Source: a bacterium
Lineage (GTDB): Bacteria > Sysuimicrobiota > Sysuimicrobiia > Sysuimicrobiales > Kaftiobacteriaceae
DNA length: 12,639 nucleotides
Assembly: GCA_044868695.1 (NCBI GenBank)
Contig: JBIOWP010000109.1
Coordinates: 1-12,639, forward strand
Direction: 5' to 3'
A program made the position numbers and the translations under genes. Below are positions 1 through 12,639 of this stretch, one piece after another (position 1 is the stretch's first letter; each line of letters starts with the position of its first letter). Below the pieces are notes generated by a model, which had not been told where the DNA came from, did not search any database, and worked only from the letters and a program-made list of their open reading frames with translations.

Positions 1-219
1 CGTTTCTTCATGAAAGGGTCGGCCCTCCAGGGCACGCTGCATGGCGGCGCCCTCGGTCTCGAAACGCACATCGAAGTTGAGGCCGACGAGCCGCCGGAGA
101 AGATCCGGCACCTGGTCAAAATGGGGGAGCAGATGTGCTTCACGCTCCAGTCGTTGATCAACCCGGTTCCCGTCACGACGACCGCGGCCCTCAACGGGGA
201 ACCCCTGGCCTTGGAGTAA
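1..219 (+). CDS. OsmC/Ohr-like protein, C-terminal part (5' truncated by window)
   Basis: Frame is open from base 1. The pattern 'IEVEADEPPEKIRHLVKMGEQMCFTLQSLINPVPV' resembles the OsmC C-terminal strand-helix with the conserved second Cys followed by 'SL..P'. Confidence 0.65.
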   Translation, partial: RFFMKGSALQGTLHGGALGLETHIEVEADEPPEKIRHLVKMGEQMCFTLQSLINPVPVTTTAALNGEPLALE

Positions 220-265
220 CGGGTCGCGCGGTGTGAGACGCGCATGAAAAGGACGGTGGGCACTA

Positions 266-790
266 ATGCTCGACACGTTCAAAACGTTGGTCAAGAACCA
301 GTTCGACGCAGCGCTCTGCACGCTCAACACCTGCATTGATCGATGTCCTGAGACCGTCTGGAACGCGCGCGTCGTGAACTACCTGTTTTGCCAGGTCGCA
401 TTCCACACGTTGTTTTACGCGGACTTCTATCTCGGGCAGAATGAGGAGCCGTTCCGTCGCCAACCATTTCATCTCGCCAACGAGCGTTTATTCGGCGACT
501 ACGAAGAATTCGAGGACCGCGCGCCGGTGTCGCGCTACGATAAGCCGTCAATCACAGCATACCTCGAACACTGCCGACGCAAGGCATCCGACGTGGTCGC
601 GGCGGAGACTGCGGAGACGCTCGCGGCGCGGGCCGGGTTCGAGCGGCGGGCGTTCTCCCGCGCCGAGCTGTACGTCTACAACATCCGGCACATCCAGCAC
701 CATACGTCGCATCTGAGCCTGCGGCTCAGGCTCGACGCCAACCAGGCGATCCCCTGGATTGGATCCGGGTGGCGCGAGGTTGGGAGCTAG
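266..790 (+). CDS. DinB/YfiT-like four-helix-bundle protein
   Basis: 174 aa ORF with 'CPETVW', 'QVAFHTLFYAD' and C-terminal 'YNIRHIQHH' giving the His metal triad typical of DinB. Confidence 0.8.
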   Translation: MLDTFKTLVKNQFDAALCTLNTCIDRCPETVWNARVVNYLFCQVAFHTLFYADFYLGQNEEPFRRQPFHLANERLFGDYEEFEDRAPVSRYDKPSITAYLEHCRRKASDVVAAETAETLAARAGFERRAFSRAELYVYNIRHIQHHTSHLSLRLRLDANQAIPWIGSGWREVGS

Positions 791-802
791 GGGAGGCGGT
801 CG

Positions 803-1225
803 ATGACGCACGTACCCAGCGGGGCATCGGGAGCGTCCCAAATCTCCATCACGCCGATGCTCTCGGTGAGAAACGGCGCGCGAGCCATCGCCTTCTACAA
901 GGAGGCGTTTGGAGCGACCGAGTTGACACGTTTCGCGCGCCCCGACGGGGGAGTGGTTGCCGAGCTAACGATTGAAGGCGCGAAGATCGGAGTCGCCGAC
1001 GAGTCGCCCGAAGCTTTCAACTTTAGCCCGGAGTCGCTCGGTGGCACATCGGTGCGAATCAACCTGGTCGTCGCAGATCCCGACGCCGTGGCCAGCCGCG
1101 CCGTGGCCGCCGGCGCGCGGCTGCTCTTTCCGGTGGCCGACCAGGCTTACGGTTGGCGGCAGGGACGCGTGGTGGATCCGTTCGGACACCACTGGCTGAT
1201 CGGCAGGCCCCTGGAAAAGAGGTGA
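803..1225 (+). CDS. VOC/glyoxalase family protein (PhnB-like)
   Basis: 'ITPMLSVRNGARAIAFYKEAFGA', 'GGTSVRINLVVADPDA', 'YGWRQGRVVDPFGHHW'. GGAGG SD just upstream. Confidence 0.9.
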   Translation: MTHVPSGASGASQISITPMLSVRNGARAIAFYKEAFGATELTRFARPDGGVVAELTIEGAKIGVADESPEAFNFSPESLGGTSVRINLVVADPDAVASRAVAAGARLLFPVADQAYGWRQGRVVDPFGHHWLIGRPLEKR

Positions 1226-1230
1226 AGGCT

Positions 1231-1638
1231 ATGAAGGCACAACGAGTCGTCATCCTGCTGACCGCGATCAACCTTGTGCTCTTGCTGCTAACCGTGATGC
1301 AGGCGAGGTCTATGGCAGCGCAGAGCGTCACTCCGATCCTGCGTGCTGGCGCGCTCGAGTTAGTGGACGAGCACGGTGTGGTTCGCGCGCGACTCAACGT
1401 GAAAGGCGGTTCAAGCGGTCCAATTGAACTCGATCTGTTCGACAAAGACGGGATCATCCGCGTGAAGCTTGGCGCGGGCGAGGACGGCTCAGGATTGGTG
1501 CTTTCTGAGGGAGGAACGGACGCCTCCCGCGGTTATGTACAAATCATTGCCAGGCAGACGGGTACTGCCGCGCAGCCGGCCACGACCGGCATCACATTGA
1601 GGGGTGCAGACGGCCGGCAGCGCGTGATCAGGCCCTGA
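1231..1638 (+). CDS. Hypothetical membrane-anchored/secreted beta-rich protein
   Basis: ATG at 1231 follows the VOC stop, with GAGGTG SD. Hydrophobic N-terminus, then repeated 'L.L.D..G..R..L' units (LELVDEHGVVRARL, LDLFDKDGIIRVKL, ITLRGADGRQRVI). Confidence 0.7.
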   Translation: MKAQRVVILLTAINLVLLLLTVMQARSMAAQSVTPILRAGALELVDEHGVVRARLNVKGGSSGPIELDLFDKDGIIRVKLGAGEDGSGLVLSEGGTDASRGYVQIIARQTGTAAQPATTGITLRGADGRQRVIRP

Positions 1639-1672
1639 CCCGTCCGGCATCTCACGATCGTCCCTCGGCATC

Positions 1673-1738
1673 CTTTATGGAATCTTCACAGGACGTTTAA
1701 AGGTTCATTATCCCTCCCCAACAATCGTCTGCTAGGTT
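1673..1738 (+). promoter_or_regulatory. Putative promoter with 11-bp-periodic direct repeats (OmpR/PhoB-type box) and extended -10
   Basis: CTTTAT(1673), CTTCAC(1684), GTTTAA(1695), CATTAT(1706) at exact 11-bp spacing, in an AT-rich intergenic region. TG-C-TAGGTT at 1730-1738. Confidence 0.4.
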
Positions 1739-1794
1739 CACTTCGGGATCCACAGGTGGGCCCGGCGGAGCGTGGGGTCACAAGGAGGGATACG

Positions 1795-2028
1795 ATGAGG
1801 GATCTCAGGGTGCTTGTGGGAGTTTCTTTGACCGTCGTTTTGCTGAGCGCAGTCGCCGCCCCTGCATTCGCCAGCAACGTCTGCCCAGTCATAGGGGGGC
1901 CAAACAACCCCGAAATCAAGTCCACTCCGGCAGAGGTACCTGACAAGGCAGGGAACCCTGCCCACGGGACTCAGGACGCCGATGGGACCCCGGTAAGTCC
2001 GCAGCCGGGCGACGCCTTCTGGAACTGA
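1795..2028 (+). CDS. Small secreted protein (77 aa, Sec signal peptide)
   Basis: Strong AGGAGG SD at 1783-1788. Signal peptide MRDLRVLVGVSLTVVLLSAVAAPAFA with an A-F-A cleavage motif. Followed by a terminator. Confidence 0.75.
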   Translation: MRDLRVLVGVSLTVVLLSAVAAPAFASNVCPVIGGPNNPEIKSTPAEVPDKAGNPAHGTQDADGTPVSPQPGDAFWN

Positions 2029-2065
2029 TTTACATCCCCACCGCGCCCGAGCTCATCTAGATCCC

Positions 2066-2105
2066 CCACAGCGCGGCCGGTCGGCTGCGCTGTGGCATTT
2101 TCATT
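2066..2105 (+). terminator. Intrinsic terminator
   Basis: CCACAGCGCGGCC / GGCTGCGCTGTGG 13-bp stem (one G-U) with a GGTC loop, followed by CATTTTCATT. Confidence 0.75.
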
Positions 2106-2231
2106 GACCCTTTGTGTCCGCGCGCCCGCGGCCATTTTCATGTGTGCGTGAGTGTTCGGTAGGATTGCGAGGTCCGCCGATGAAGAAACGAACTCGACGC
2201 AGTGTGAAGGCCTGACACTCTGGAGGCGTTA

Positions 2232-2816
2232 ATGCGACTGGCGGTACGGCCTCTGACGAGGGATCGGTGGGGGGATCTGGTCGACCTCTTCAGCCGGCCC
2301 GGAGGGTCAATCGTCCGGGGCTGCTGGTGTATGTACTACCGGAAGGTGGGGGCACGTGCCGATGGTCCTGCCGGCGAGGCCAACAAGCGGGCCATGAAGT
2401 CGCTCGTGGACCGCGGGACGGTGCCGGGGCTCATTGCCTACAGAGACCGACGGCCTGTCGGCTGGATCTCCCTGGGTCCCCGCGAGGACTACCCGCGGCT
2501 GGAGCGCTCCCGGGTAATGAAGCGCGTCGACGAGAAGCCGGTCTGGTCGATCGTGTGTTTCTTCGTCGATTCGCAAGAACGGGGTCAGGGCATCACGAGA
2601 GCGTTGCTGCGGGGGGCGATCGCCTACGCCCGGTCGAAGGGCGCCACGCTGCTCGAGGCGTATCCCATCGACAAGAAGGCGCGGAGCCACCCAGACTTCA
2701 TGTGGTTCGGAGCCAAGCACCTATTCGACCGGGCGGGCTTCAGGGAGGTCGCCCGCCGAAAGGAAACTCGGCCGGTCGTCCGCCGCGGCCTGCGCCCACA
2801 GAGGGCTCCCAGATAG
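2232..2816 (+). CDS. GNAT family N-acetyltransferase
   Basis: 'CWCMYYR', 'VWSIVCFFVDSQERGQGITRALLRGA' (motif A, R-x-x-G-x-T), 'LEAYP', 'FDRAGF'. GGAGG SD. Confidence 0.9.
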   Translation: MRLAVRPLTRDRWGDLVDLFSRPGGSIVRGCWCMYYRKVGARADGPAGEANKRAMKSLVDRGTVPGLIAYRDRRPVGWISLGPREDYPRLERSRVMKRVDEKPVWSIVCFFVDSQERGQGITRALLRGAIAYARSKGATLLEAYPIDKKARSHPDFMWFGAKHLFDRAGFREVARRKETRPVVRRGLRPQRAPR

Positions 2817-2818
2817 CG

Positions 2819-3289
2819 ATGCAGCTCCTGCTGAAGAATCTGGTCTTCACCTTGCTCATCCCGGGGTCGGTTGCCGTCTACCTCCCGCTGCTGATCGTGC
2901 GGCGCACCGCTGCGCTCTGGCGGATCGATATCGCCTCTGTGGTGGGGGTGCTGCTGGTCATGCTCGGGGCAGGCCTGTACCTGTGGTGTCTGCGGGAATT
3001 CACCGTCACGGGCCGCGGTACGCCGGCACCCATCGACGCGCCGACCCGGCTGGTCATGGGCGGACCCTATCAGTACGTGCGCAACCCGATGTACGTGGCG
3101 CTCCTGGTGATGGTCGTTGGTTGGAGCGTGGCGTTCCTCGTTCCGCTGCTCCTCGTCTACGCCGCCATGATTGCCGCGGCATTCCATCTCTTCGTGATCT
3201 TCTACGAGGAGCCGACCCTGCGCGGGCAGTTCGGCGAAGACTACGAGCAGTACACGAACCTGGTGAACCGATGGGTGCCCTGGCCGTGA
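2819..3289 (+). CDS. Isoprenylcysteine carboxylmethyltransferase (ICMT/Ste14/PEMT)-family membrane methyltransferase
   Basis: 'GRGTPAPIDAPTRLVMGGPYQYVRNPMY', 'YEEPTLRGQFGEDYEQY...VNRW'. ATG 2 nt after the GNAT stop. Confidence 0.88.
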   Translation: MQLLLKNLVFTLLIPGSVAVYLPLLIVRRTAALWRIDIASVVGVLLVMLGAGLYLWCLREFTVTGRGTPAPIDAPTRLVMGGPYQYVRNPMYVALLVMVVGWSVAFLVPLLLVYAAMIAAAFHLFVIFYEEPTLRGQFGEDYEQYTNLVNRWVPWP

Positions 3290-3753
3290 TGGCAGAGCAG
3301 CAACCACCTTCCCCGCGATTCTACCCGCCGATTCTCTTGTTGTTCTCGATCATCCTGATGGTTGGGCTGCACTATGCGGTTCCGGTCGCGCGATGGCTGT
3401 CATGGCCGTGGCGGGCGTCTGGTGCGGTGCCTGTGGCGGCAGGTCTGCTCCTGGGCCTGGCGGCAAGCAGGCACTTCACGCGACACGACACGACCATTGT
3501 CCCGTTTGAGCAATCGAGCGAACTGATCACCGAGGGGCCATACCGGTACACCAGGAATCCCCTCTATCTCTCGATGACCCTCATGCTGATCGGACTCTGG
3601 GTCTTCCTGGGAAGCCTGTCCCCGGCGGTGGTCGTCCCGCTGTTCGTGTGGTGGATCGCGACCCGGTTCGTCGCGAAAGAAGAGCGTCACCTCGAAGCCC
3701 AGTTTGGCCCGGCCTACCGAGCGTACAGAGCGAAGGTCCGCCGATGGTTCTAG
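3289..3753 (+). CDS. Second ICMT/Ste14/PEMT-family membrane methyltransferase
   Basis: 'LITEGPYRYTRNPLYL', 'EERHLEAQFGPAYRAYRAKVRRW'. TGATG stop/start overlap with the upstream paralog. Confidence 0.88.
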   Translation: MAEQQPPSPRFYPPILLLFSIILMVGLHYAVPVARWLSWPWRASGAVPVAAGLLLGLAASRHFTRHDTTIVPFEQSSELITEGPYRYTRNPLYLSMTLMLIGLWVFLGSLSPAVVVPLFVWWIATRFVAKEERHLEAQFGPAYRAYRAKVRRWF

Positions 3754-3799
3754 CCCCCGCCGTCAAGGTGTCCGTGACGGCGGATCGGAGGTGGTAGGA

Positions 3800-4192
3800 A
3801 TGATTCGCGGGGTCCACGCCATGTTCTATACACCCGCTGCCGAGGAGCTGCGGGCGTTTCTTCGTGACAAGCTGCGCTTTCCGTTCACCGACACGGGCGG
3901 AGGCTGGCTCATTTTCGACGCTCCGGCGGGGGAGGTCGGGGTCCATCCCCATGACCGGAAGGGTCACGGCATCTCGTTCTATTGTGACGACCTCCTCAAA
4001 ACCATGGAAGAGTTGAAGCGCCGCGGCGTGGAGTTCACCACGGGCATCATCGAGGAGGCTTGGGGATCGGTGGCCCGGTTCCGGATACCCGGCGGAGACG
4101 ATGTTGACCTCTATCAGCCCAAATACGTCAAACGACATTCTCGCGGCCGCCGGACGACCCGTCCTGCGGGCCGGAAGCGCACAAGGAGGTAA
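3800..4192 (+). CDS. VOC family (extradiol dioxygenase/bleomycin-resistance-like) protein with Arg-rich tail
   Basis: '[10 protein letters not shown]', 'DTGGGWLIF', '[20 protein letters not shown]', '[12 protein letters not shown]...LYQPKY'. Confidence 0.85.
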
Positions 4193-4194
4193 GG

Positions 4195-4842
4195 ATGAAG
4201 ATCGGAGTTTTGGGGACCGGCATGGTTGGCACCACTATCGGGACAAAGCTCGTGCAGCTAGGCCATGACGTCATGATGGGGTCTCGCTCGAAAACGAATG
4301 AGAAGGCCGCAGCGTGGGTGAAGGCGAGCGGTCCCAGGGCGTCACAAGGCACCTTTGCGGACGCGACCAGGTTTGGCGAGATTCTCTTCAACTGTACGCA
4401 CGGCATGGCCTCGCTGGAGGCTCTGAAGATGGCGGGCGCGGAGAATCTGAGAGGCAAGATCCTACTCGACCTCTCCAATCCCCTGGACTTCTCGAAGGGC
4501 ATGCCTCCGACCCTGTCGGTATGCAACACCGATTCACTCGCCGAACAGATCCAGCGCATGTTCCCCGACGCGAAGGTGGTCAAGACGCTCAATACGATGA
4601 ACTGCAAGCTGATGGTGAATCCCTCCCTGGTCCCTGGCGATCATGACGTCTTCGTGAGTGGAAATGACAAGACCGCCAAAGCGAAAGTCAGCGAGATCCT
4701 GAAGAGCTGGTTCGGCTGGAAGACGGTCATCGACCTGGGCGATATCTCGACAGCCCGAGGCGTGGAGCAGCTACTGCCACTCTGGCTGCGCCTGCTGGGC
4801 AATTTCGGGACGGCGAACTTCAATATCAAGATCGTGAAATGA
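4195..4842 (+). CDS. NADP oxidoreductase, F420H2:NADP+ oxidoreductase (FNO)-like family
   Basis: Rossmann '[12 protein letters not shown]', 'GSR' NADP motif, '[10 protein letters not shown]', 'SLAEQIQ...AKVVKTLN', 'IDLGDI..AR'. AGGAGGT SD. Confidence 0.85.
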
Positions 4843-5318
4843 GAGCGGCGACGGTCCTCTGGCGGCTGCACCGGTGGGCATACCGGATCAGCGCCGGACG
4901 AGTGGGCGGCCGGCTGCTGGGTGTGCCCGTGCTTTTGCTCACCACCACCGGCCGGCGCACCGGTCGGCTGCACACAACAGCGCTCACCCATCTCGTGGAA
5001 GGCCGGAACGTGGTCGTCATTGCCTCTAACGGCGGGGCGCCGAACCACCCGGCATGGCTGCTCAACCTGCGGGCGCGCCCAGAGGCAGAAATCCAGGTTG
5101 GAGGGCAACGCCGGCGCGTGCGTGCCCGAGAAGCCAACGGCGCCGAACGCGAGCGGTTCTGGACCCGCGTCGTCCAGGCCATGCCGCGATACGCCGACTA
5201 CAAAGCGCGTACGTCCCGCCGGATTCCTGTCGTGGTCCTCGAGCCCATCGACAGGCTGCCGGGAGAGACTCCTGACCACCGCGCGCACCCATCAGGTATC
5301 ATGAAGAGCAAGGAGTAG
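4839..5318 (+). CDS. Deazaflavin (F420)-dependent nitroreductase/oxidoreductase, Ddn/FDOR-A family
   Basis: '[13 protein letters not shown]', '[23 protein letters not shown]', '[19 protein letters not shown]'. ATGA overlap with the upstream gene. Confidence 0.92.
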
Positions 5319-5332
5319 AGGAGGAGGACCAC

Positions 5333-5875
5333 ATGCGCAAGGAAGTTGCGACCCTGGCCGGAGGGTGCTTCTGGTGCCTGGAAGCCGTGTTCGACGATCT
5401 GGAGGGTGTGGAAGACGTCGTCTCAGGATACTCCGGCGGCGACGTTCCCAACCCCAGCTATAAGCACGTCTGCACCGGGGAGACGGGCCATGCCGAGGTC
5501 GTGCAAGTCGCGTTCAACCCGGACGTGCTCTCCTACCAGGATCTGCTGAAGGTGTTCTTTGCCATTCACGACCCCACAACCCTCAACCGCCAGGGCGGTG
5601 ACGTGGGGACGCAGTACCGCTCGGCCATCTTCACGCACAGCGAAGAGCAGGAGAAAGTCGCGGAGCAGGTCATCACGGAGCTCAACGACGCCGGCATCTG
5701 GGATGAGCCGATCGTCACCGAGATCGTCCCGCTTGGGGCATTCTATCCGGCCGAGGACTACCATCAGGAGTACTTCCGGCGGAATCCCAATCAGGGATAC
5801 TGCCGCGTCGTCGTTGCGCCGAAGGTGGCCAAGTTCCGCAAGCAGTTTCTGGACCGGCTGAAGAAGGCCGGCTGA
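5333..5875 (+). CDS. msrA: Peptide-methionine (S)-S-oxide reductase
   Basis: Catalytic 'GGCFWC', '[14 protein letters not shown]', '[22 protein letters not shown]', '[11 protein letters not shown]', 'GYC'. GGAGGAGG SD. Confidence 0.98.
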
Positions 5876-5877
5876 GG

Positions 5878-6360
5878 GTGGCCGTGGAGCCGAAGGCCGT
5901 TCAGGATTTCTATCCCGAGGATTTGAACCGGTGTTACGGGTGCGGTCAGAAGAATGAGCACGGCCTGCGTCTGAGGACGCTGGTGGTCGGTGAGGAGACT
6001 GTGGCCACCTTCATGCCCCAGCCCTATCACACGGCGATTCAGGGGTACGTCTATGGAGGGCTGATCGCGTCGCTCATCGATTGCCACGGCACGGGAACGG
6101 CCGCCGCCGCGGCATACCGCGCCGCCGGTCGCGCGGTGGGGTCAGACCCGCCATTTCGCTTTGTGACTGCGTCGCTGCACGTCAATTACGAGAAACCCAC
6201 ACCGATCGCCGTTCCCCTGGAGCTCCGGGGTCGGGCGAAAGAGGTCAAAGGGCGGAAAGTGGTCGTGGAGGTCACGCTGTCCGCCCGCGGCCAGGTCTGC
6301 GCCCGGGGTGAGGTGGTGGCGGTGCAGCTCCCCGCAGAGATGGCGGGCCCCCGTGGATAG
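5878..6360 (+). CDS. PaaI/hotdog-fold thioesterase
   Basis: 'CYGCG..NEHGL', 'VYGGLIASLIDCH', 'VTASLHVNYEKPTP'. GTG start 2 nt after the msrA stop. Confidence 0.88.
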   Translation: MAVEPKAVQDFYPEDLNRCYGCGQKNEHGLRLRTLVVGEETVATFMPQPYHTAIQGYVYGGLIASLIDCHGTGTAAAAAYRAAGRAVGSDPPFRFVTASLHVNYEKPTPIAVPLELRGRAKEVKGRKVVVEVTLSARGQVCARGEVVAVQLPAEMAGPRG

Positions 6361-6416
6361 CCGGCGACTGATCCCCAATCGGCGCGGGTACGCTTCATCC
6401 AGGACTGACTCCTGGA

Positions 6417-8387
6417 GTGCTCATGAACGGCTCAACCGCGTCGGCCATCGGCCTCATCCTCGTCCCCGGGATTTTCGCATGGTGGAGCGGGTGGCGTCTT
6501 ACCCGCCTCGCTGAGCATCCTGCGCTCTCCGAGCGCCTCCAGGCGCGAAACCAGCAGGTCACGCAGCTCACGATCGGCGCGATCATTATCCTGCTGACCT
6601 TTGTCCGGCATCACGCGGGCTGGGCAGTGCCCGGGCTCTTCCTTGCCGTGACCATCGCCAGCTTTCCCGCGCGCCGGCGGCTGCTGGATGAACGCTGGAG
6701 TCTCGGGCAGTACCTGCTCTTCCACCTGCGGCTGTGGGCGGGATGGTTCGGCCTCTGGCTAGTGGTGATGATCGCCCCGTTCGTCGTGGGCGCCGGCGCC
6801 GCGGCGCGGTGGCAGATCGCGGCCGGACTCGCGGTGGTGCTGGTGGCGTGGAACTTCGCCTATTCGAGAGTGTTCGTGCGTCTGGTCGGCGCCCGCCCCC
6901 TCCCGCTGCCCCCGCGTTTTGCCGGGATCGCGGCACAGACAAAGATCCGGACGCCGCGTTTCTTCCGGTTCGGCTCGGACGACGGCCGGGTGGTCAATGC
7001 GTTCGCGCTGCCCTCCGTGCTCACGCCCGGGGTCGCGTTCACCGCGGCCCTGATGCAGGCGCTCGACGCCGACGAGCAGGCCGCCGTCTTCGCGCACGAG
7101 GTCGCCCATCTCGAGTACTTTAACCGCCGCCGGCTCATTGCCGGCAACATGGTTCTCTCGGTGTTCATCGTGCTGGCGACGGCGGGCGCCGCCGTGGTGC
7201 CGGAAGCGTATTGGGGGTTCCTCGCCGTATGGCCGGTCGTCATGATGATCGCGCTGACGTCCGCCCTGGCCCGCCGGAAGGTCCACGAAGAGGAGAGCGA
7301 CCGCCGCGCCGTGGCGCTGTGCGGCGATCCGGAGGCTCTGGTGCGCGCGCTCGTGAAGATTACGACCCTGGCGCGCATGCCGCGGCGGTGGGGTCTCGCC
7401 TTTGAGCGCGGCGCCACCCATCCCAGCTTGGCCCGCCGGATTCAGGTGATCCGCAGCTTCTCCGGGACCGCGACGGTCCGGCCGCTGTCACAAGTGGTCT
7501 CGACGAAGACGCCCGGGATGTACGTGATCCTGGAGGCAGACCACGCCGTCTGGCTGGAGGGGGTGCCTGACGGCACGCCGCCCGAGGCCGCGGCACTGCG
7601 CCGTGGGGCGGTCAGCTCCCGGTCCCTGCGCTACGATGGGCTGCTCGAGCTGCGGCTCCGGGCCGGGATGACCGGCACGCCGGTGCTCACGGCCACGGAC
7701 CTGGGCGGCAAATCCTGGTCCGTGCCGGTGCGGGAGGACGACGTCGCGGCCGTGCAGGCCGCCCTCGACGTCGTCGACATTCGGTTCGGCCGTCCGCCGG
7801 TGGCATCCACGACCTACGCGCTGCTCGGACGGATCCTGTCGGTTCTCCTCATGCTGCTGGATCTTGTGTCGGGCGCGCGGCTTACCCCTCTGGTGACGGG
7901 GGCACTGGGATTCTGGCGTCCCGGCCGGGCCACCCTGGCCGCATCTTCGGCAGCGGCTGTCGGCACCGTGGTCGCGGCGATCACCATGCTAGGCCCCGTG
8001 CTGGGGATGCCCGGTGCCACGGCCTGGAGCTGGCGCCATACGGGATTCAATGCCGGCCTGCTCGTGGTCGCAGGGATGAGCGCCTGGCTCGCATTCCGCC
8101 GCGCCCCAGGGCTCCCCGAACGCCGGATCGATATCTTCCTGCCTTCCGCCGTGCTGGCGGCGCTAACAGTGGGCATGTGGACCCTGCTGGCCGTGAACAT
8201 ATCCACACCCTATGGCCTTGCGCTCGTGACGAATATGGTGAAAGCGGCGGCCGACACATGGCTGGCGCCCCTCGCGCTCGCCGTCATACTGCTGACGGCG
8301 CGCCATCGCGTCGCCCGCCTGGGTGGTGTGGTGATGCTTGCGGTCAGCGTGCTGCTCTATGCGTTTGGGTGGGCCGGACTGCAGTAG
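6417..8387 (+). CDS. M48 (HtpX/Ste24-like) zinc metallopeptidase with extended multi-TM C-terminus
   Basis: 'VNAFA', 'AVFAHEVAH' (HExxH), 'EEESDRRA' (third-ligand E), 'ATHPSLARRI', many hydrophobic segments. The start could be GTG 6417 or ATG 6423; GGAG precedes the ATG. Confidence 0.85.
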   Translation: MLMNGSTASAIGLILVPGIFAWWSGWRLTRLAEHPALSERLQARNQQVTQLTIGAIIILLTFVRHHAGWAVPGLFLAVTIASFPARRRLLDERWSLGQYLLFHLRLWAGWFGLWLVVMIAPFVVGAGAAARWQIAAGLAVVLVAWNFAYSRVFVRLVGARPLPLPPRFAGIAAQTKIRTPRFFRFGSDDGRVVNAFALPSVLTPGVAFTAALMQALDADEQAAVFAHEVAHLEYFNRRRLIAGNMVLSVFIVLATAGAAVVPEAYWGFLAVWPVVMMIALTSALARRKVHEEESDRRAVALCGDPEALVRALVKITTLARMPRRWGLAFERGATHPSLARRIQVIRSFSGTATVRPLSQVVSTKTPGMYVILEADHAVWLEGVPDGTPPEAAALRRGAVSSRSLRYDGLLELRLRAGMTGTPVLTATDLGGKSWSVPVREDDVAAVQAALDVVDIRFGRPPVASTTYALLGRILSVLLMLLDLVSGARLTPLVTGALGFWRPGRATLAASSAAAVGTVVAAITMLGPVLGMPGATAWSWRHTGFNAGLLVVAGMSAWLAFRRAPGLPERRIDIFLPSAVLAALTVGMWTLLAVNISTPYGLALVTNMVKAAADTWLAPLALAVILLTARHRVARLGGVVMLAVSVLLYAFGWAGLQ

Positions 8388-8440
8388 TGGTTCAATTTAA
8401 GATACCCACTACCCTCTTCTAGGTAGTGGGTCGTCTGAAT
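8383..8440. repeat. Cluster of three alternating copies of a GTAGTGG-core motif
   Basis: AGTAGTGGTTCA (8383-8394, +), ATACCCACTACC (8402-8413, -), GGTAGTGGGTCGTCTGAA (8422-8439, +). 8404-8413 and 8422-8431 form a perfect 10-bp inverted repeat. Confidence 0.75.
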
Positions 8441-9000
8441 GGACGGGCGGCTGGCTGCTCGGGGGCGGTCCCTCGCGTCGAGTCGGGCGGCTTCCGATTG
8501 GATGTGCAGGCCTCACGCTCCCTGGTGCGCTCGCCTGCCAAGATGCGACGGAACACGACGGCCTCTGCTGCTTTCCCCGCGACATACTTCGGTCGATCCC
8601 TACCTCACGGCCTGCCAGTGGGTGGTTGCCGCCCTCCAATCTCCGCTCGGGGCCGCCCCACTCGCCCGCCGCCCGGCCCGCTGGGCCGTCCCGAGCGTCT
8701 GCGAGGCACCTCCCGTGGGGCGGGTGGAAGGCTGCGGAGCGACGTGGCGGCGAGCTGTCGCCGCCGTGCGCGAGGGCCGCGTCGCGCAGGGCGGGGCCCC
8801 GCACGCAGCGTCACGCAGGGAGCACGATGCAGGATGGAGCGCGCGGTAGTGCGGGGGGGCCGGAGCAGCGTGCCCGGCCGTCGTGCCGGCCGGGTGAGCC
8901 CAGCCGATCGTGGCGGGCGAGCCCGAGCGCTACGCCCGGCGGGTGAGCCGCCCCGAGAGCGGAGCGGCCTTCCACTAGCCCAACAGATGACGGATGACAG

Positions 9001-9019
9001 TCCAGACTGAACCACTACT
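9001..9019 (-). repeat. Fourth copy of the GTAGTGG-core motif (inverted)
   Basis: TCCAGACTGAACCACTACT. 9008-9019 is the exact reverse complement of 8383-8394 (12/12). The reverse complement GTAGTGGTTCAGTCTGGA also aligns to GTAGTGGGTC-GTCTGAA at 8423. Confidence 0.75.
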
Positions 9020-9033
9020 CGACTGCCGGGTCC

Positions 9034-9061
9034 TTGACAACACTCGGGTCGGGTTTATAAT
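9034..9061 (+). promoter_or_regulatory. Consensus sigma70/SigA promoter (rRNA-type)
   Basis: TTGACA (9034-9039) - 16 bp - TATAAT (9056-9061). Perfect hexamers with the 16-bp spacer typical of rrn promoters. Confidence 0.92.
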
Positions 9062-9146
9062 GAGTGATGGTCTGTTAGACACGGGAGGGAACACGGATCT
9101 TCGGTACCTCTAGCGGCTAACTGAATACGTAGTGAAGATGAGCACC

Positions 9147-9175
9147 GAGGGGATGGCTGCTCATCCCCTCTTTTT
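9147..9175 (+). terminator. Intrinsic terminator-like hairpin in the 23S leader
   Basis: GAGGGGATG (9147-9155) / CATCCCCTC (9162-9170) perfect 9-bp stem, 6-nt loop, followed by TTTTT. Confidence 0.7.
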
Positions 9176-9200
9176 GTGTCTTGCAGATCTTCCACTGAAC

Positions 9201-9239
9201 TGTCCGGATCCCCCGGACATGCACCTTGACAACCGCAGA
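9201..9239 (+). promoter_or_regulatory. boxB-like hairpin plus boxA-like / processing-stalk sequence
   Basis: TGTCCGG/CCGGACA hairpin (9201-9219) directly followed by TGCACCTTGACAAC, resembling rrn boxA (TGCTCTTTAACAA). Confidence 0.55.
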
Positions 9240-9365
9240 GAGCCGGATCTCCGACGCTCCCGAGGCGTCCGAGATCATACCCCATCGCCGGATGGGGCCC
9301 GTCGTGCCTGGGTGTGCAGGCAGGAGGGGGCAATGCAGGCTCTAGACAGCTACTCCTAAAGTGGG

Positions 9366-11447
<2,082 letters not shown>

Positions 11448-12151
11448 AAGGACACCTTGCCCGTCGCGGGAGCGATCCCGCGAGCAAACCCGGCTCATAT
11501 CGGTGGAGCCCCGATGACCCAAATGGGTCAGGGTAATACCGAGGGAAGCTGCGGTAGAATCCTACCGTTAGCCCCGTAACGACTTCGGGACGGCAGTCCC
11601 GGGGCGGTGCCTTCTGGTGGTGACACCAAATCTACGGGCACCGCAATACGCCGGTATCTCGACAGGGGGAGCCTTAGGATGGATCTCGGAGCGTACCTCT
11701 CAGGCTACGCTGACGGCGAAGGATGCTTTTGCGTAACGTTCAATCGAAGCGCGCGGCATGCCTTCGGCTGGGATGTTCGGCCCAGTTTCTCCGTCAGCCA
11801 GAATCGCGAGCGCGCGGAGATTCTTGAGTTGTTCCAGACGAGGTTTGGGTGCGGAACCATCCGCCCCGATCGTTCCGATCGGACACTCAAGTACGAAGTG
11901 CGCAGCGTGCCGGAGCTGGTGGAAAGAGTCATCCCGCACTTCCGGTGTTACCCGATGCTGTCCGCCAAGAGCCGTGATTTCGAAATCTTCGCAGGTATCT
12001 GCGAGGAGATAAATCGCGGCGAGCACCTGACGGACGCAGGATTCAACCGGATTGCCGCGATGGCGGCCGAGATCAATCCGACAGGCAAGAAAAAATACCC
12101 TCGAATCGAGATAAAGGTATAGTCTACGCCCCTGGCGACAGGGAGAGCGTG
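11448..12151 (+). mobile_element. Group I intron (IA-like) at 23S position L1951, carrying a homing endonuclease gene
   Basis: Exon junction GTCGGGT|AAGTTCCGACC is interrupted: 5' exon ends in U, intron ends in G. P1 CGGGU/GCCCG with U-G at the splice site; P2 TCGCGGGA-GCGA-TCCCGCGA; P3 CCGGC(11490)/GCCGG(11650); P4 TCGGT(11500)/ACCGA(11538); P7 GACT(11581)/AGTC(12121); P7.1 and P7.2 hairpins; P8 TATCTCGA/TCGAGATA; P9 CCCTG-GCGA-CAGGG. Confidence 0.95.
11679..12122 (+). CDS. Single-motif LAGLIDADG homing endonuclease (147 aa)
   Basis: 'YLSGYADGEGCF' LAGLIDADG helix, 'PSFSVSQ', 'FGCGTI', 'VIPHF..YPMLSAKSRDF'. ATG 11679 preceded by GGGGGAG. Lies in the P8 loop. Confidence 0.95.
   Translation: MDLGAYLSGYADGEGCFCVTFNRSARHAFGWDVRPSFSVSQNRERAEILELFQTRFGCGTIRPDRSDRTLKYEVRSVPELVERVIPHFRCYPMLSAKSRDFEIFAGICEEINRGEHLTDAGFNRIAAMAAEINPTGKKKYPRIEIKV

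Positions 12152-12639
<488 letters not shown>

Follow-up and report, generated by a model that had tools for sequence, protein, structure and literature searches.

The interrupted 23S rRNA gene

The window analysed here is the whole of contig JBIOWP010000109.1 (C109; 12,639 nt), which belongs to a 2.59-Mb metagenome-assembled genome (MAG; 162 contigs, 95% complete) of an uncultured soil bacterium. Its sole feature at the Rfam gathering level is a bacterial large-subunit (LSU) rRNA at 9366-12639 (2130.6 bits), which matches positions 1-2466 of the 2925 of the model, the contig end cutting the 23S gene off. Between the GTCGGGT and AAGTTCC of this gene lies an insertion of 704 nt (11448-12151), which very probably represents an IA-like group I intron at site L1951 with an intact LAGLIDADG gene of the single-motif kind, and is predicted to be self-splicing and homing. 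The closest named 23S among the loci that we fetched is that of Candidatus Geohabitans tengchongensis of the phylum Ca. Sysuimicrobiota (CSP1-3). The two are 85.5% identical in the final 1.5 kb of the 5' exon and 91.8% identical in the 3' exon, which suggests that the host belongs to this phylum.

The insertion follows a U and has a G as its last base. At the junctions the sequence reads ...CTTGTCGGGT / AAGGACACC ... GAGAGCGTG / AAGTTCCGACC or, over a longer span, ...CCTTGTCGGGT / AAGGACACCTTGCCCG ... GGGAGAGCGTG / AAGTTCCGACCTGCACGAA; since AAG is present at both ends of the intron, the boundary was set by the group I rule alone, namely U before the intron and G last. The insertion point falls within a stretch that is among the most conserved in 23S rRNA, and the exon flanks are 88% identical to the E. 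coli 23S over 118 nt. When the 5' exon was aligned, the final T of GTCGGGT corresponded to base 1953 of the E. coli rrl copy used as reference, which is annotated with 2906 nt and begins with the canonical GGTTAAGCG. In this copy, CUAUAAC has its two U's at bases 1917 and 1919, and we take them to be psi1915 and psi1917 of the standard 2904-nt numbering. With the offset of 2 that rests on this anchor, the insertion site is L1951, after U1951 (E. coli 1951/1952), a known hotspot of insertion.

Fold and covariation of the intron

The insertion has a P3-P9 core with a P3/P7 pseudoknot, a bulged P7, a U.G wobble in P1 and a terminal G (omega G) with P9.0, as expected of a group I intron (Table 1). 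The helices were assigned by reading the sequence in conjunction with the Rfam RF00028 alignment of an ORF-less homologue in the relative G009. A first-pass annotation, made by reading the sequence of the window, had already called a group I intron with P7.1/P7.2 and a LAGLIDADG gene at L1951, and this was borne out by the helices, the covariation among 45 introns, Pfam and the E. coli alignment; its coordinates, 11448-12151, and its boundaries, with U before the insertion and G at its end, were right, and each of the helices that it named from P1 to P9 can be written with standard pairs.

Homologous introns were collected by searching one genome per species with the endonuclease, which gave 44 loci. 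In 42 of these, 23S exon motifs lie on both sides of an insert of about 660-840 nt and place it at the same site, the exceptions being L043, which is cut by the end of the locus, and L047, which has no 3' motif. The alignment, a plain MAFFT one, comprised 45 introns, namely those of 41 loci together with the window and three of its relatives described below (G012, G040 and G009), L050 having been dropped because its boundary was unclear. Overall, 87.3% of the cells pair, and 68 of the 87 pairs show changes on both sides. When the 3' partner was slid by 1-3 columns, 38-42% of the cells paired, and 300 within-column shuffles gave a mean of 71.0% (standard deviation 0.5, maximum 72.5%). Pairing is complete (100% of cells) in P3, P4, P6 and P7 and amounts to 96-99% in P5, P9 and P9.0. 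Judged from the aligned sequences, the fold is more than chance and is supported by compensatory changes in the 45 homologues.

At the 5' splice site, U11447 forms a wobble with G11459, and this pair is U.G in 44 of the 45 introns; a second pair of P1, 11450-11456, covaries between G-C and U-A. P2 occurs with many pair types and is gapped, that is absent, in 17 of the 45 introns, while P3 shows swaps between C-G and U-A and between G-C and A-U. Across the bulge of P7, the pair 11579-12125 changes from A-U to U-A in four of the 45 introns, and next to it G11581-C12124, the predicted guanosine-binding pair, is invariant in all 45. Up to six pair types per position are found in P7.2, P8 shows C-G/U-A and U-A/C-G swaps, and both P9.0 and P9 have multiple compensatory pair types. 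In the region 12106-12125, GAGAUAAAGGUAUAGUCUACGCC is invariant in four close copies. Of the 46 introns extracted, 45 end in G, the 46th being L050.

An alternative P7, CGUA[AC]GACU/AGUCUACG, was tried and rejected: CGUA is invariant, and the bases after AGUCU covary with those before the terminal G, forming P9.0. Helices P7.1 and P7.2 between P7 and P3' are the mark of group I subgroup IA, and this feature is present at 11586-11644, with the subgroup assignment going no finer than IA.

Table 1. Positions of the 23S exons, the intron with its helices, and the endonuclease gene in the window; cells paired are those of the alignment of 45 introns.
Feature	Position	Strand	Evidence or remark
23S rRNA 5' exon, ends ...GTCGGGU (U1951)	9366-11447	+	Rfam LSU_rRNA_bacteria; E. 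coli rrl alignment
Group I intron, 704 nt, IA-like architecture	11448-12151	+	helices, covariation (n=45), RF00028 match of ORF-less homologue
P1: exon CGGGU + intron AAG (11443-11450) / internal guide CUUGCCCG (11456-11463)	11443-11463	+	
P2 hairpin, GCGA loop	11465-11482	+	186/196 cells paired
P3	11490-11494 / 11650-11654	+	225/225 cells paired
P4	11500-11505 / 11537-11542	+	270/270 cells paired
P5	11509-11511 / 11531-11533	+	134/135 cells paired
P5a hairpin	11515-11530	+	124/227 cells paired
P6 (11543-11545 / 11573-11575), P6a, P6b hairpin	11543-11575	+	P6 135/135, P6a 131/135, P6b 182/216 cells paired
P7: A[C]GACU / AGUCU, bulged C11580	11579-11584 / 12121-12125	+	225/225 cells paired
P7.1 hairpin, between P7 and P3'	11586-11601	+	161/234 cells paired
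P7.2, between P7 and P3'; inner hairpin 11615-11628, GUGA loop	11604-11611 / 11637-11644	+	315/356 cells paired
P8, 5' strand UAUCUCGA	11655-11662 / 12106-12113	+	251/336 cells paired
Shine-Dalgarno-like run GGGGGAG, 7 nt before ATG	11665-11671	+	sequence reading
Homing endonuclease gene, 147 aa + stop, ATG start, in P8 loop	11679-12122	+	Pfam LAGLIDADG_1 (PF00961)
J8/7 AAGGUAU, between P8 3' strand and P7 3' strand	in 12106-12125	+	
P9.0: ACG / CGU, encloses P9	12126-12128 / 12148-12150	+	130/135 cells paired
P9 hairpin, GCGA loop	12130-12143	+	220/225 cells paired
Terminal G (omega G)	12151	+	
23S rRNA 3' exon, ends at contig end (model position 2466)	12152-12639	+	Rfam

The endonuclease gene

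The open reading frame (ORF) in the P8 loop matches the Pfam family LAGLIDADG_1 with an E-value of 2.7e-22 and 80 bits (cut-off 23.1) over profile positions 1-101 of 102. A longer reading from a GTG start at 11607 finds no support in the homologues. The protein has a single motif, LSGYADGEGCF, whose acidic residue E14 falls, in the alignment, on the E in the ..AEG../..GEG.. motifs of enzymes with solved structures and presumably binds metal, a role that we carry over from D20 of I-CreI. Nearly all homologues retain GYADGEG, which includes E14, as well as PSFSVSQN. The protein aligns with either half of double-motif PDB enzymes of the I-OnuI/I-SmaMI type (best E 4.8e-37), and single-motif enzymes align as well (5gkk, 2.9e-20; 3e54, 2.2e-10; I-CeuI, 1.8e-5).

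Upstream of the ATG, the run GGGGGAG is found with identical spacing in G012 as well, and we infer that it functions as a ribosome-binding site. At the other end, the gene runs into the ribozyme core: its last codons, ..ATC GAG ATA AAG GTA TAG, make up the 3' strand of P8 and J8/7, and the AG of the UAG stop are the first two bases of the 3' strand of P7. In most homologues the stop codon lies 29-31 nt before the 3' splice site. A passage of PMC1995217 describes ORFs that overlap the ribozyme core as known for such introns.

Between the window and G012, the endonuclease genes differ at proportions of 0.56 of synonymous (pS) and 0.13 of nonsynonymous sites (pN), with dS 1.03 and a ratio of nonsynonymous to synonymous rates (dN/dS) of 0.13, so that, as far as this pair of sequences tells, the protein is under purifying selection. 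A homodimeric enzyme is expected to have a target with two-fold symmetry. At the site, symmetry reaches 7 of 11 pairs about the best centre, a value attained by 678 of 2000 shuffles and hence not significant, and 6 of 11 for a GTCGG/CCGAC repeat whose centre lies 1.5 nt 3' of the point of insertion. As regards the state of the ORF, 37 of the 45 analysed copies are full length, seven are truncated or frameshifted (L030, L041, L044, L045, L046, L048 and L049) and one, that of G009, has no ORF. This spread of states fits the gain-decay-loss cycle that part of PMC1995217 describes for homing elements.

Relatives and distribution of the element

Among 40 relatives of the host, three carry the intron (G012 and G009 from the same family and G040 from the same order), eight have an uninterrupted site (G004, G005 and G010 from the same family and five genomes from the same order) and 29 show neither, their 23S most likely not having been assembled. 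The copy in G009 is an ORF-less version of 350 nt at the identical site (L004, 1494-1843; contig G009:C123), 78% identical to the window intron over positions 7-214 and 91% over positions 660-704, in which the P8 stem closes a 100-nt, GC-rich, hairpin-like loop free of any ORF.

Further intron-like sequences were seen in two of these relatives. On the 3' fragment of the G009 23S (L006; G009:C85, 39915-40001, minus strand), about 700 nt downstream of the L1951 site, there is a weak match with 74% identity to intron positions 20-101, which may be another related intron further along this 23S; Rfam gave no Intron_gpI in L006 at E<=0.001. The 23S of G040 (L003; G040:C114, minus strand) contains two more group I introns, at 2224-2494 and 634-890, one of them ending roughly 35 nt upstream of the L1951 intron of G040, an arrangement that recalls Coxiella, where two introns reportedly flank an exon of 34 bp.

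The host labels of the 44 loci range widely and include Actinomycetota, classes of Chloroflexota, Omnitrophota, Bipolaricaulota, Fraserbacteria, Dormibacterota, Gemmatimonadota, Armatimonadota, Planctomycetales, Delta- and Gammaproteobacteria, Thermodesulfobacteriota and groups of the Candidate Phyla Radiation (CPR), the last accounting for four of the 44 (two Saccharibacteria, one Patescibacteria group and one Paceibacterota). The window protein shares 80% identity with that of G012, 71% with one from an Actinomycetota-labelled MAG and 63% with the protein of G040. In a quick maximum-likelihood tree of the 37 intact proteins, from which five interrupted ones were excluded and for which L045 and L049 fell below the 100-residue filter, the window and G012 are sisters, with a support of 94 in the Shimodaira-Hasegawa-like approximate likelihood-ratio test (SH-aLRT), and several well-supported clades mix phyla, which suggests that the element may have been transferred between phyla. 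Mis-binned rRNA contigs could mimic such transfer, and MAG host labels may be wrong on short rRNA contigs. The labels of three short rRNA contigs (L040, L033 and L037) fit poorly with the composition of their introns and their place in the tree and are probably binning errors, as exemplified by a 1564-nt 'Paceibacterota' contig with an intron of 61% GC that stands among Gaiellaceae/Thermoleophilia copies.

A search of 5.8 billion protein clusters returned 1744 at E<=1e-10, and among the 120 matches listed of these 1744, identity is 63-100% and the length mostly 147 aa. With 44 species genomes, many phyla and 1744 protein clusters, the L1951 intron family is common, and the statement in the first-pass annotation that group I introns are rare in bacterial 23S genes fails for it. 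The same annotation had read the composition of the element as host-adapted, which applies in part. Across the 45 loci, intron GC (0.35-0.64) follows the GC of the flanking exons with a Spearman coefficient of 0.78, a value that is overstated as the loci are related. In the window itself, where the intron has a GC of 0.59, the GC at third codon positions (GC3) of the ORF is 0.70, below the 0.77-0.85 of six neighbouring ORFs. The composition is largely, though not fully, host-like.

Assembly and RNA data

Only one LSU locus and one LAGLIDADG gene are present in the assembly, in which an uninterrupted L1951 site was not found. Upstream of the 23S gene, the blocks 2232-2797, 4859-5246, 5332-5881, 5895-6334 and 9057-9365 show colinearity with the corresponding DNA upstream of the 23S of G012 and, in part, of G009, both of which carry the intron. 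Unitigs of 757-760 nt from four DNA runs of two studies cover 11421 to 12177-12180 with zero differences; one of the two studies may be the source of the window, and this support is not independent. In metatranscriptomes (four runs from four studies), there was no cover on 11480-12117, and joints 11447>12152 were seen with conserved sides of 27-28 nt. As the same joint was also found in DNA runs, the joints in the RNA runs stem from the intron-less 23S of other organisms.

The Rfam search found no 16S rRNA or tRNA gene in the 9.3 kb upstream of the 23S (window 1-9365), and in relatives a 5S lies downstream of the 23S, which makes it probable that the 16S is not linked to the 23S-5S unit. In the Rfam alignment, lineage-specific insertions of about 17-25 nt are visible in domain I/II helices of the 23S at 9649-9665, 9697-9721 and 9995-10011.

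Discussion

Taken as an IA-like group I intron with an intact endonuclease gene, the insertion at L1951 is likely to be self-splicing and homing, a prediction drawn from the behaviour of group I introns and of single-domain LAGLIDADG enzymes in general. Guanosine-initiated transesterification in two steps would remove it from the pre-23S rRNA, with the UU of the guide pairing with the AA of the 3' exon to form P10. The ORF would be translated from the GGGGGAG site, and its product would act as a homodimer, in the manner of single-domain LAGLIDADG enzymes of the I-CreI type, to cut both strands near 1951/1952 in alleles that lack the intron, and repair of the break from an intron-bearing copy would spread the element by homing. 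The protein may in addition assist the folding of the RNA as a maturase. The suggestion in the first-pass annotation that the element is active or recently active gains indirect support from the intact full-length ORF, the dN/dS of 0.13, the conservation of all catalytic-core pairs, the patchy presence of the intron and its ORF-less relative.

Several points weigh against this interpretation. The structure was derived from the window sequence and is thus favoured over the slid controls, and the 45 sequences are related, so that the shuffles overstate the significance. The peripheral helices P5a, P7.1 and P8 are weaker in the plain alignment (Table 1), which may be due to misalignment or to real variation. 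The Rfam model Intron_gpI (RF00028) gave no match to the window's own intron even at E<=10, and its score for the ORF-less homologue in G009, 40.5 bits (E 4.5e-9), lies below the gathering score of 50. The unitigs span each junction by 27-29 nt of universally conserved exon, where the criterion of the tool is 31 nt. Moreover, at least one bacterial group I intron in 23S rRNA, that of Simkania, is reportedly unspliced, according to a title cited in PMC1995217 and PMC11270868. As for Intron_gpI, which the first-pass annotation had proposed as a check, the miss on the window is probably due to a P8 loop that, with its ORF, spans 443 nt and to the P7.1/P7.2 insert, and we do not take it as refuting the fold, since the ORF-less homologue was matched over the whole model (1-253); that two other introns in the 23S of G040 pass RF00028, with 55.5 and 53.8 bits, indicates that the search itself works.

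Among the other explanations, the one that survives best, though in our opinion an unlikely one, is that the ribozyme is functional and the element immobile, the ORF being a maturase or a relic that has not yet decayed and the intron being inherited vertically within the family. The sister relationship of the window and G012 endonucleases (SH-aLRT 94) at orthologous, colinear loci would agree with such inheritance, as would the ribozyme of G009, which lacks an ORF in the same family, and the truncation or frameshift of the ORF in seven of the 45 copies. However, the dN/dS points to selection on the protein, although this would fit a maturase as well, the metal-binding acidic residue E14 of the motif is kept, the endonuclease tree mixes phyla, and the Actinomycetota-labelled copy (71%) is closer to the window than the copy of G040 from the same order (63%).

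Considerably less probable is that a real intron is retained in the mature 23S rRNA, or is cut out without ligation to leave a fragmented rRNA. The case of Simkania provides a possible parallel for retention, and the metatranscriptome runs, which do not cover 11480-12117, yielded no evidence that this intron is spliced. Intervening sequences that fragment the rRNA are described for bacteria in a passage of PMC11270868. Against retention, all elements for both splicing steps are kept and covary, including the U.G at the splice site in 44 of 45 introns, P9.0, which serves only to place the terminal G, is paired in 130 of 135 cells, and the insertion sits in the highly conserved 23S stretch that shares 88% identity with E. 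coli over 118 nt.

An assembly or binning artefact, by which the intron-bearing 23S of another organism was joined within conserved exon, is hardly credible: the MAG is in 162 contigs, the contig ends within the 23S, rRNA contigs are often mis-binned and the unitigs bridge the junctions by 27-29 nt of conserved exon only, but the 9.3 kb upstream are colinear with two genomes of the same family that both have the intron at the identical site, the 23S exons of the window are 91-95% identical to those of G012 and G009 on both sides of the intron, and in run X4 the intron unitig has a depth of 18.2 compared with 14-24 in adjoining 23S pieces with zero differences, depth being a weak measure.

We retain the interpretation as a probable self-splicing, homing intron. 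A bolder proposal, for which we would put the chances somewhat below even, is that the L1951 intron with its 147-aa endonuclease is a single pan-bacterial element that is still moving between phyla and is far commoner outside the CPR than the literature, in which bacterial rRNA introns are rare, would suggest, and that the position of the stop codon in J8/7-P7 makes translation and RNA folding mutually exclusive. With regard to annotation, the 23S gene is split at this locus, the LAGLIDADG ORF does not count as a cellular gene, and rRNA-based tools may mis-handle the region. The breadth of the family, with labels from many phyla and 1744 protein clusters, tempers the textbook rarity of bacterial rRNA introns outside the CPR, while the 45 aligned natural variants are good material for studying the IA ribozyme and enzymes of 147 aa that target L1951. 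As judged from PMC11604079 and PMC11962464, two papers on CSP1-3/Sysuimicrobiota in which the word 'intron' is absent, an rRNA intron seems not to have been noted before in the phylum CSP1-3 (Sysuimicrobiota); a full-text search for introns in CSP1-3/Sysuimicrobiota returned only CPR and method papers.

The nearest known counterpart is Cbu.L1951 of Coxiella burnetii, listed in Table 1 of PMC1995217 as an intron of 720 nt with a LAGLIDADG ORF of 157 aa and reported, in a passage of PMC4990558, to be spliced from the precursor. The two are alike in description, in that they share the site, a similar size (704 nt and 147 aa here) and the endonuclease family, whereas the hosts differ, one being an uncultured soil bacterium and the other an intracellular pathogen. 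No Coxiella name occurs among the 120 cluster matches listed (of 1744), nor among the 44 species-genome loci. According to PMC11270868 (2024), LAGLIDADG_1 insertions are frequent at 23S position 1952 of CPR bacteria, and the endonucleases found at a given site are relatives of one another even in different host lineages. These insertions have the same site, numbered 1952 there, and the same Pfam family as the present one; the survey covered CPR and RefSeq reference genomes, whereas the hosts found here belong mostly to uncultured phyla other than CPR.

In architecture, the intron resembles the L2593 introns of cyanobacteria (Synechococcus), for which a passage of PMC1995217 describes a short P5, a short P2, a P7 extension of about 65 nt (P7.1/P7.2) and a single-motif LAGLIDADG ORF that runs from a peripheral loop into the core. 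In this comparison, made by description, the P7.1-P7.2 region corresponds to 11586-11644 of the window, while the insertion site is different. Helices P7.1 and P7.2 between P7 and P3' are also common to the present intron and the IA introns of the phage T4 td/Twort type. The core strings ..UAACGACU.. and ..AUAUAGUCU.. are likewise of a kind known from the td intron. Introns of the td/Twort type differ in that they interrupt protein-coding genes and have endonucleases of other families, that of td being listed as GIY-YIG in Table 1 of PMC1995217. Together with the L1951 intron of Coxiella and the position-1952 insertions of the CPR, these comparisons place the intron of the window as one of a kind already known, namely an ordinary member of a family that occupies the same site in many phyla.

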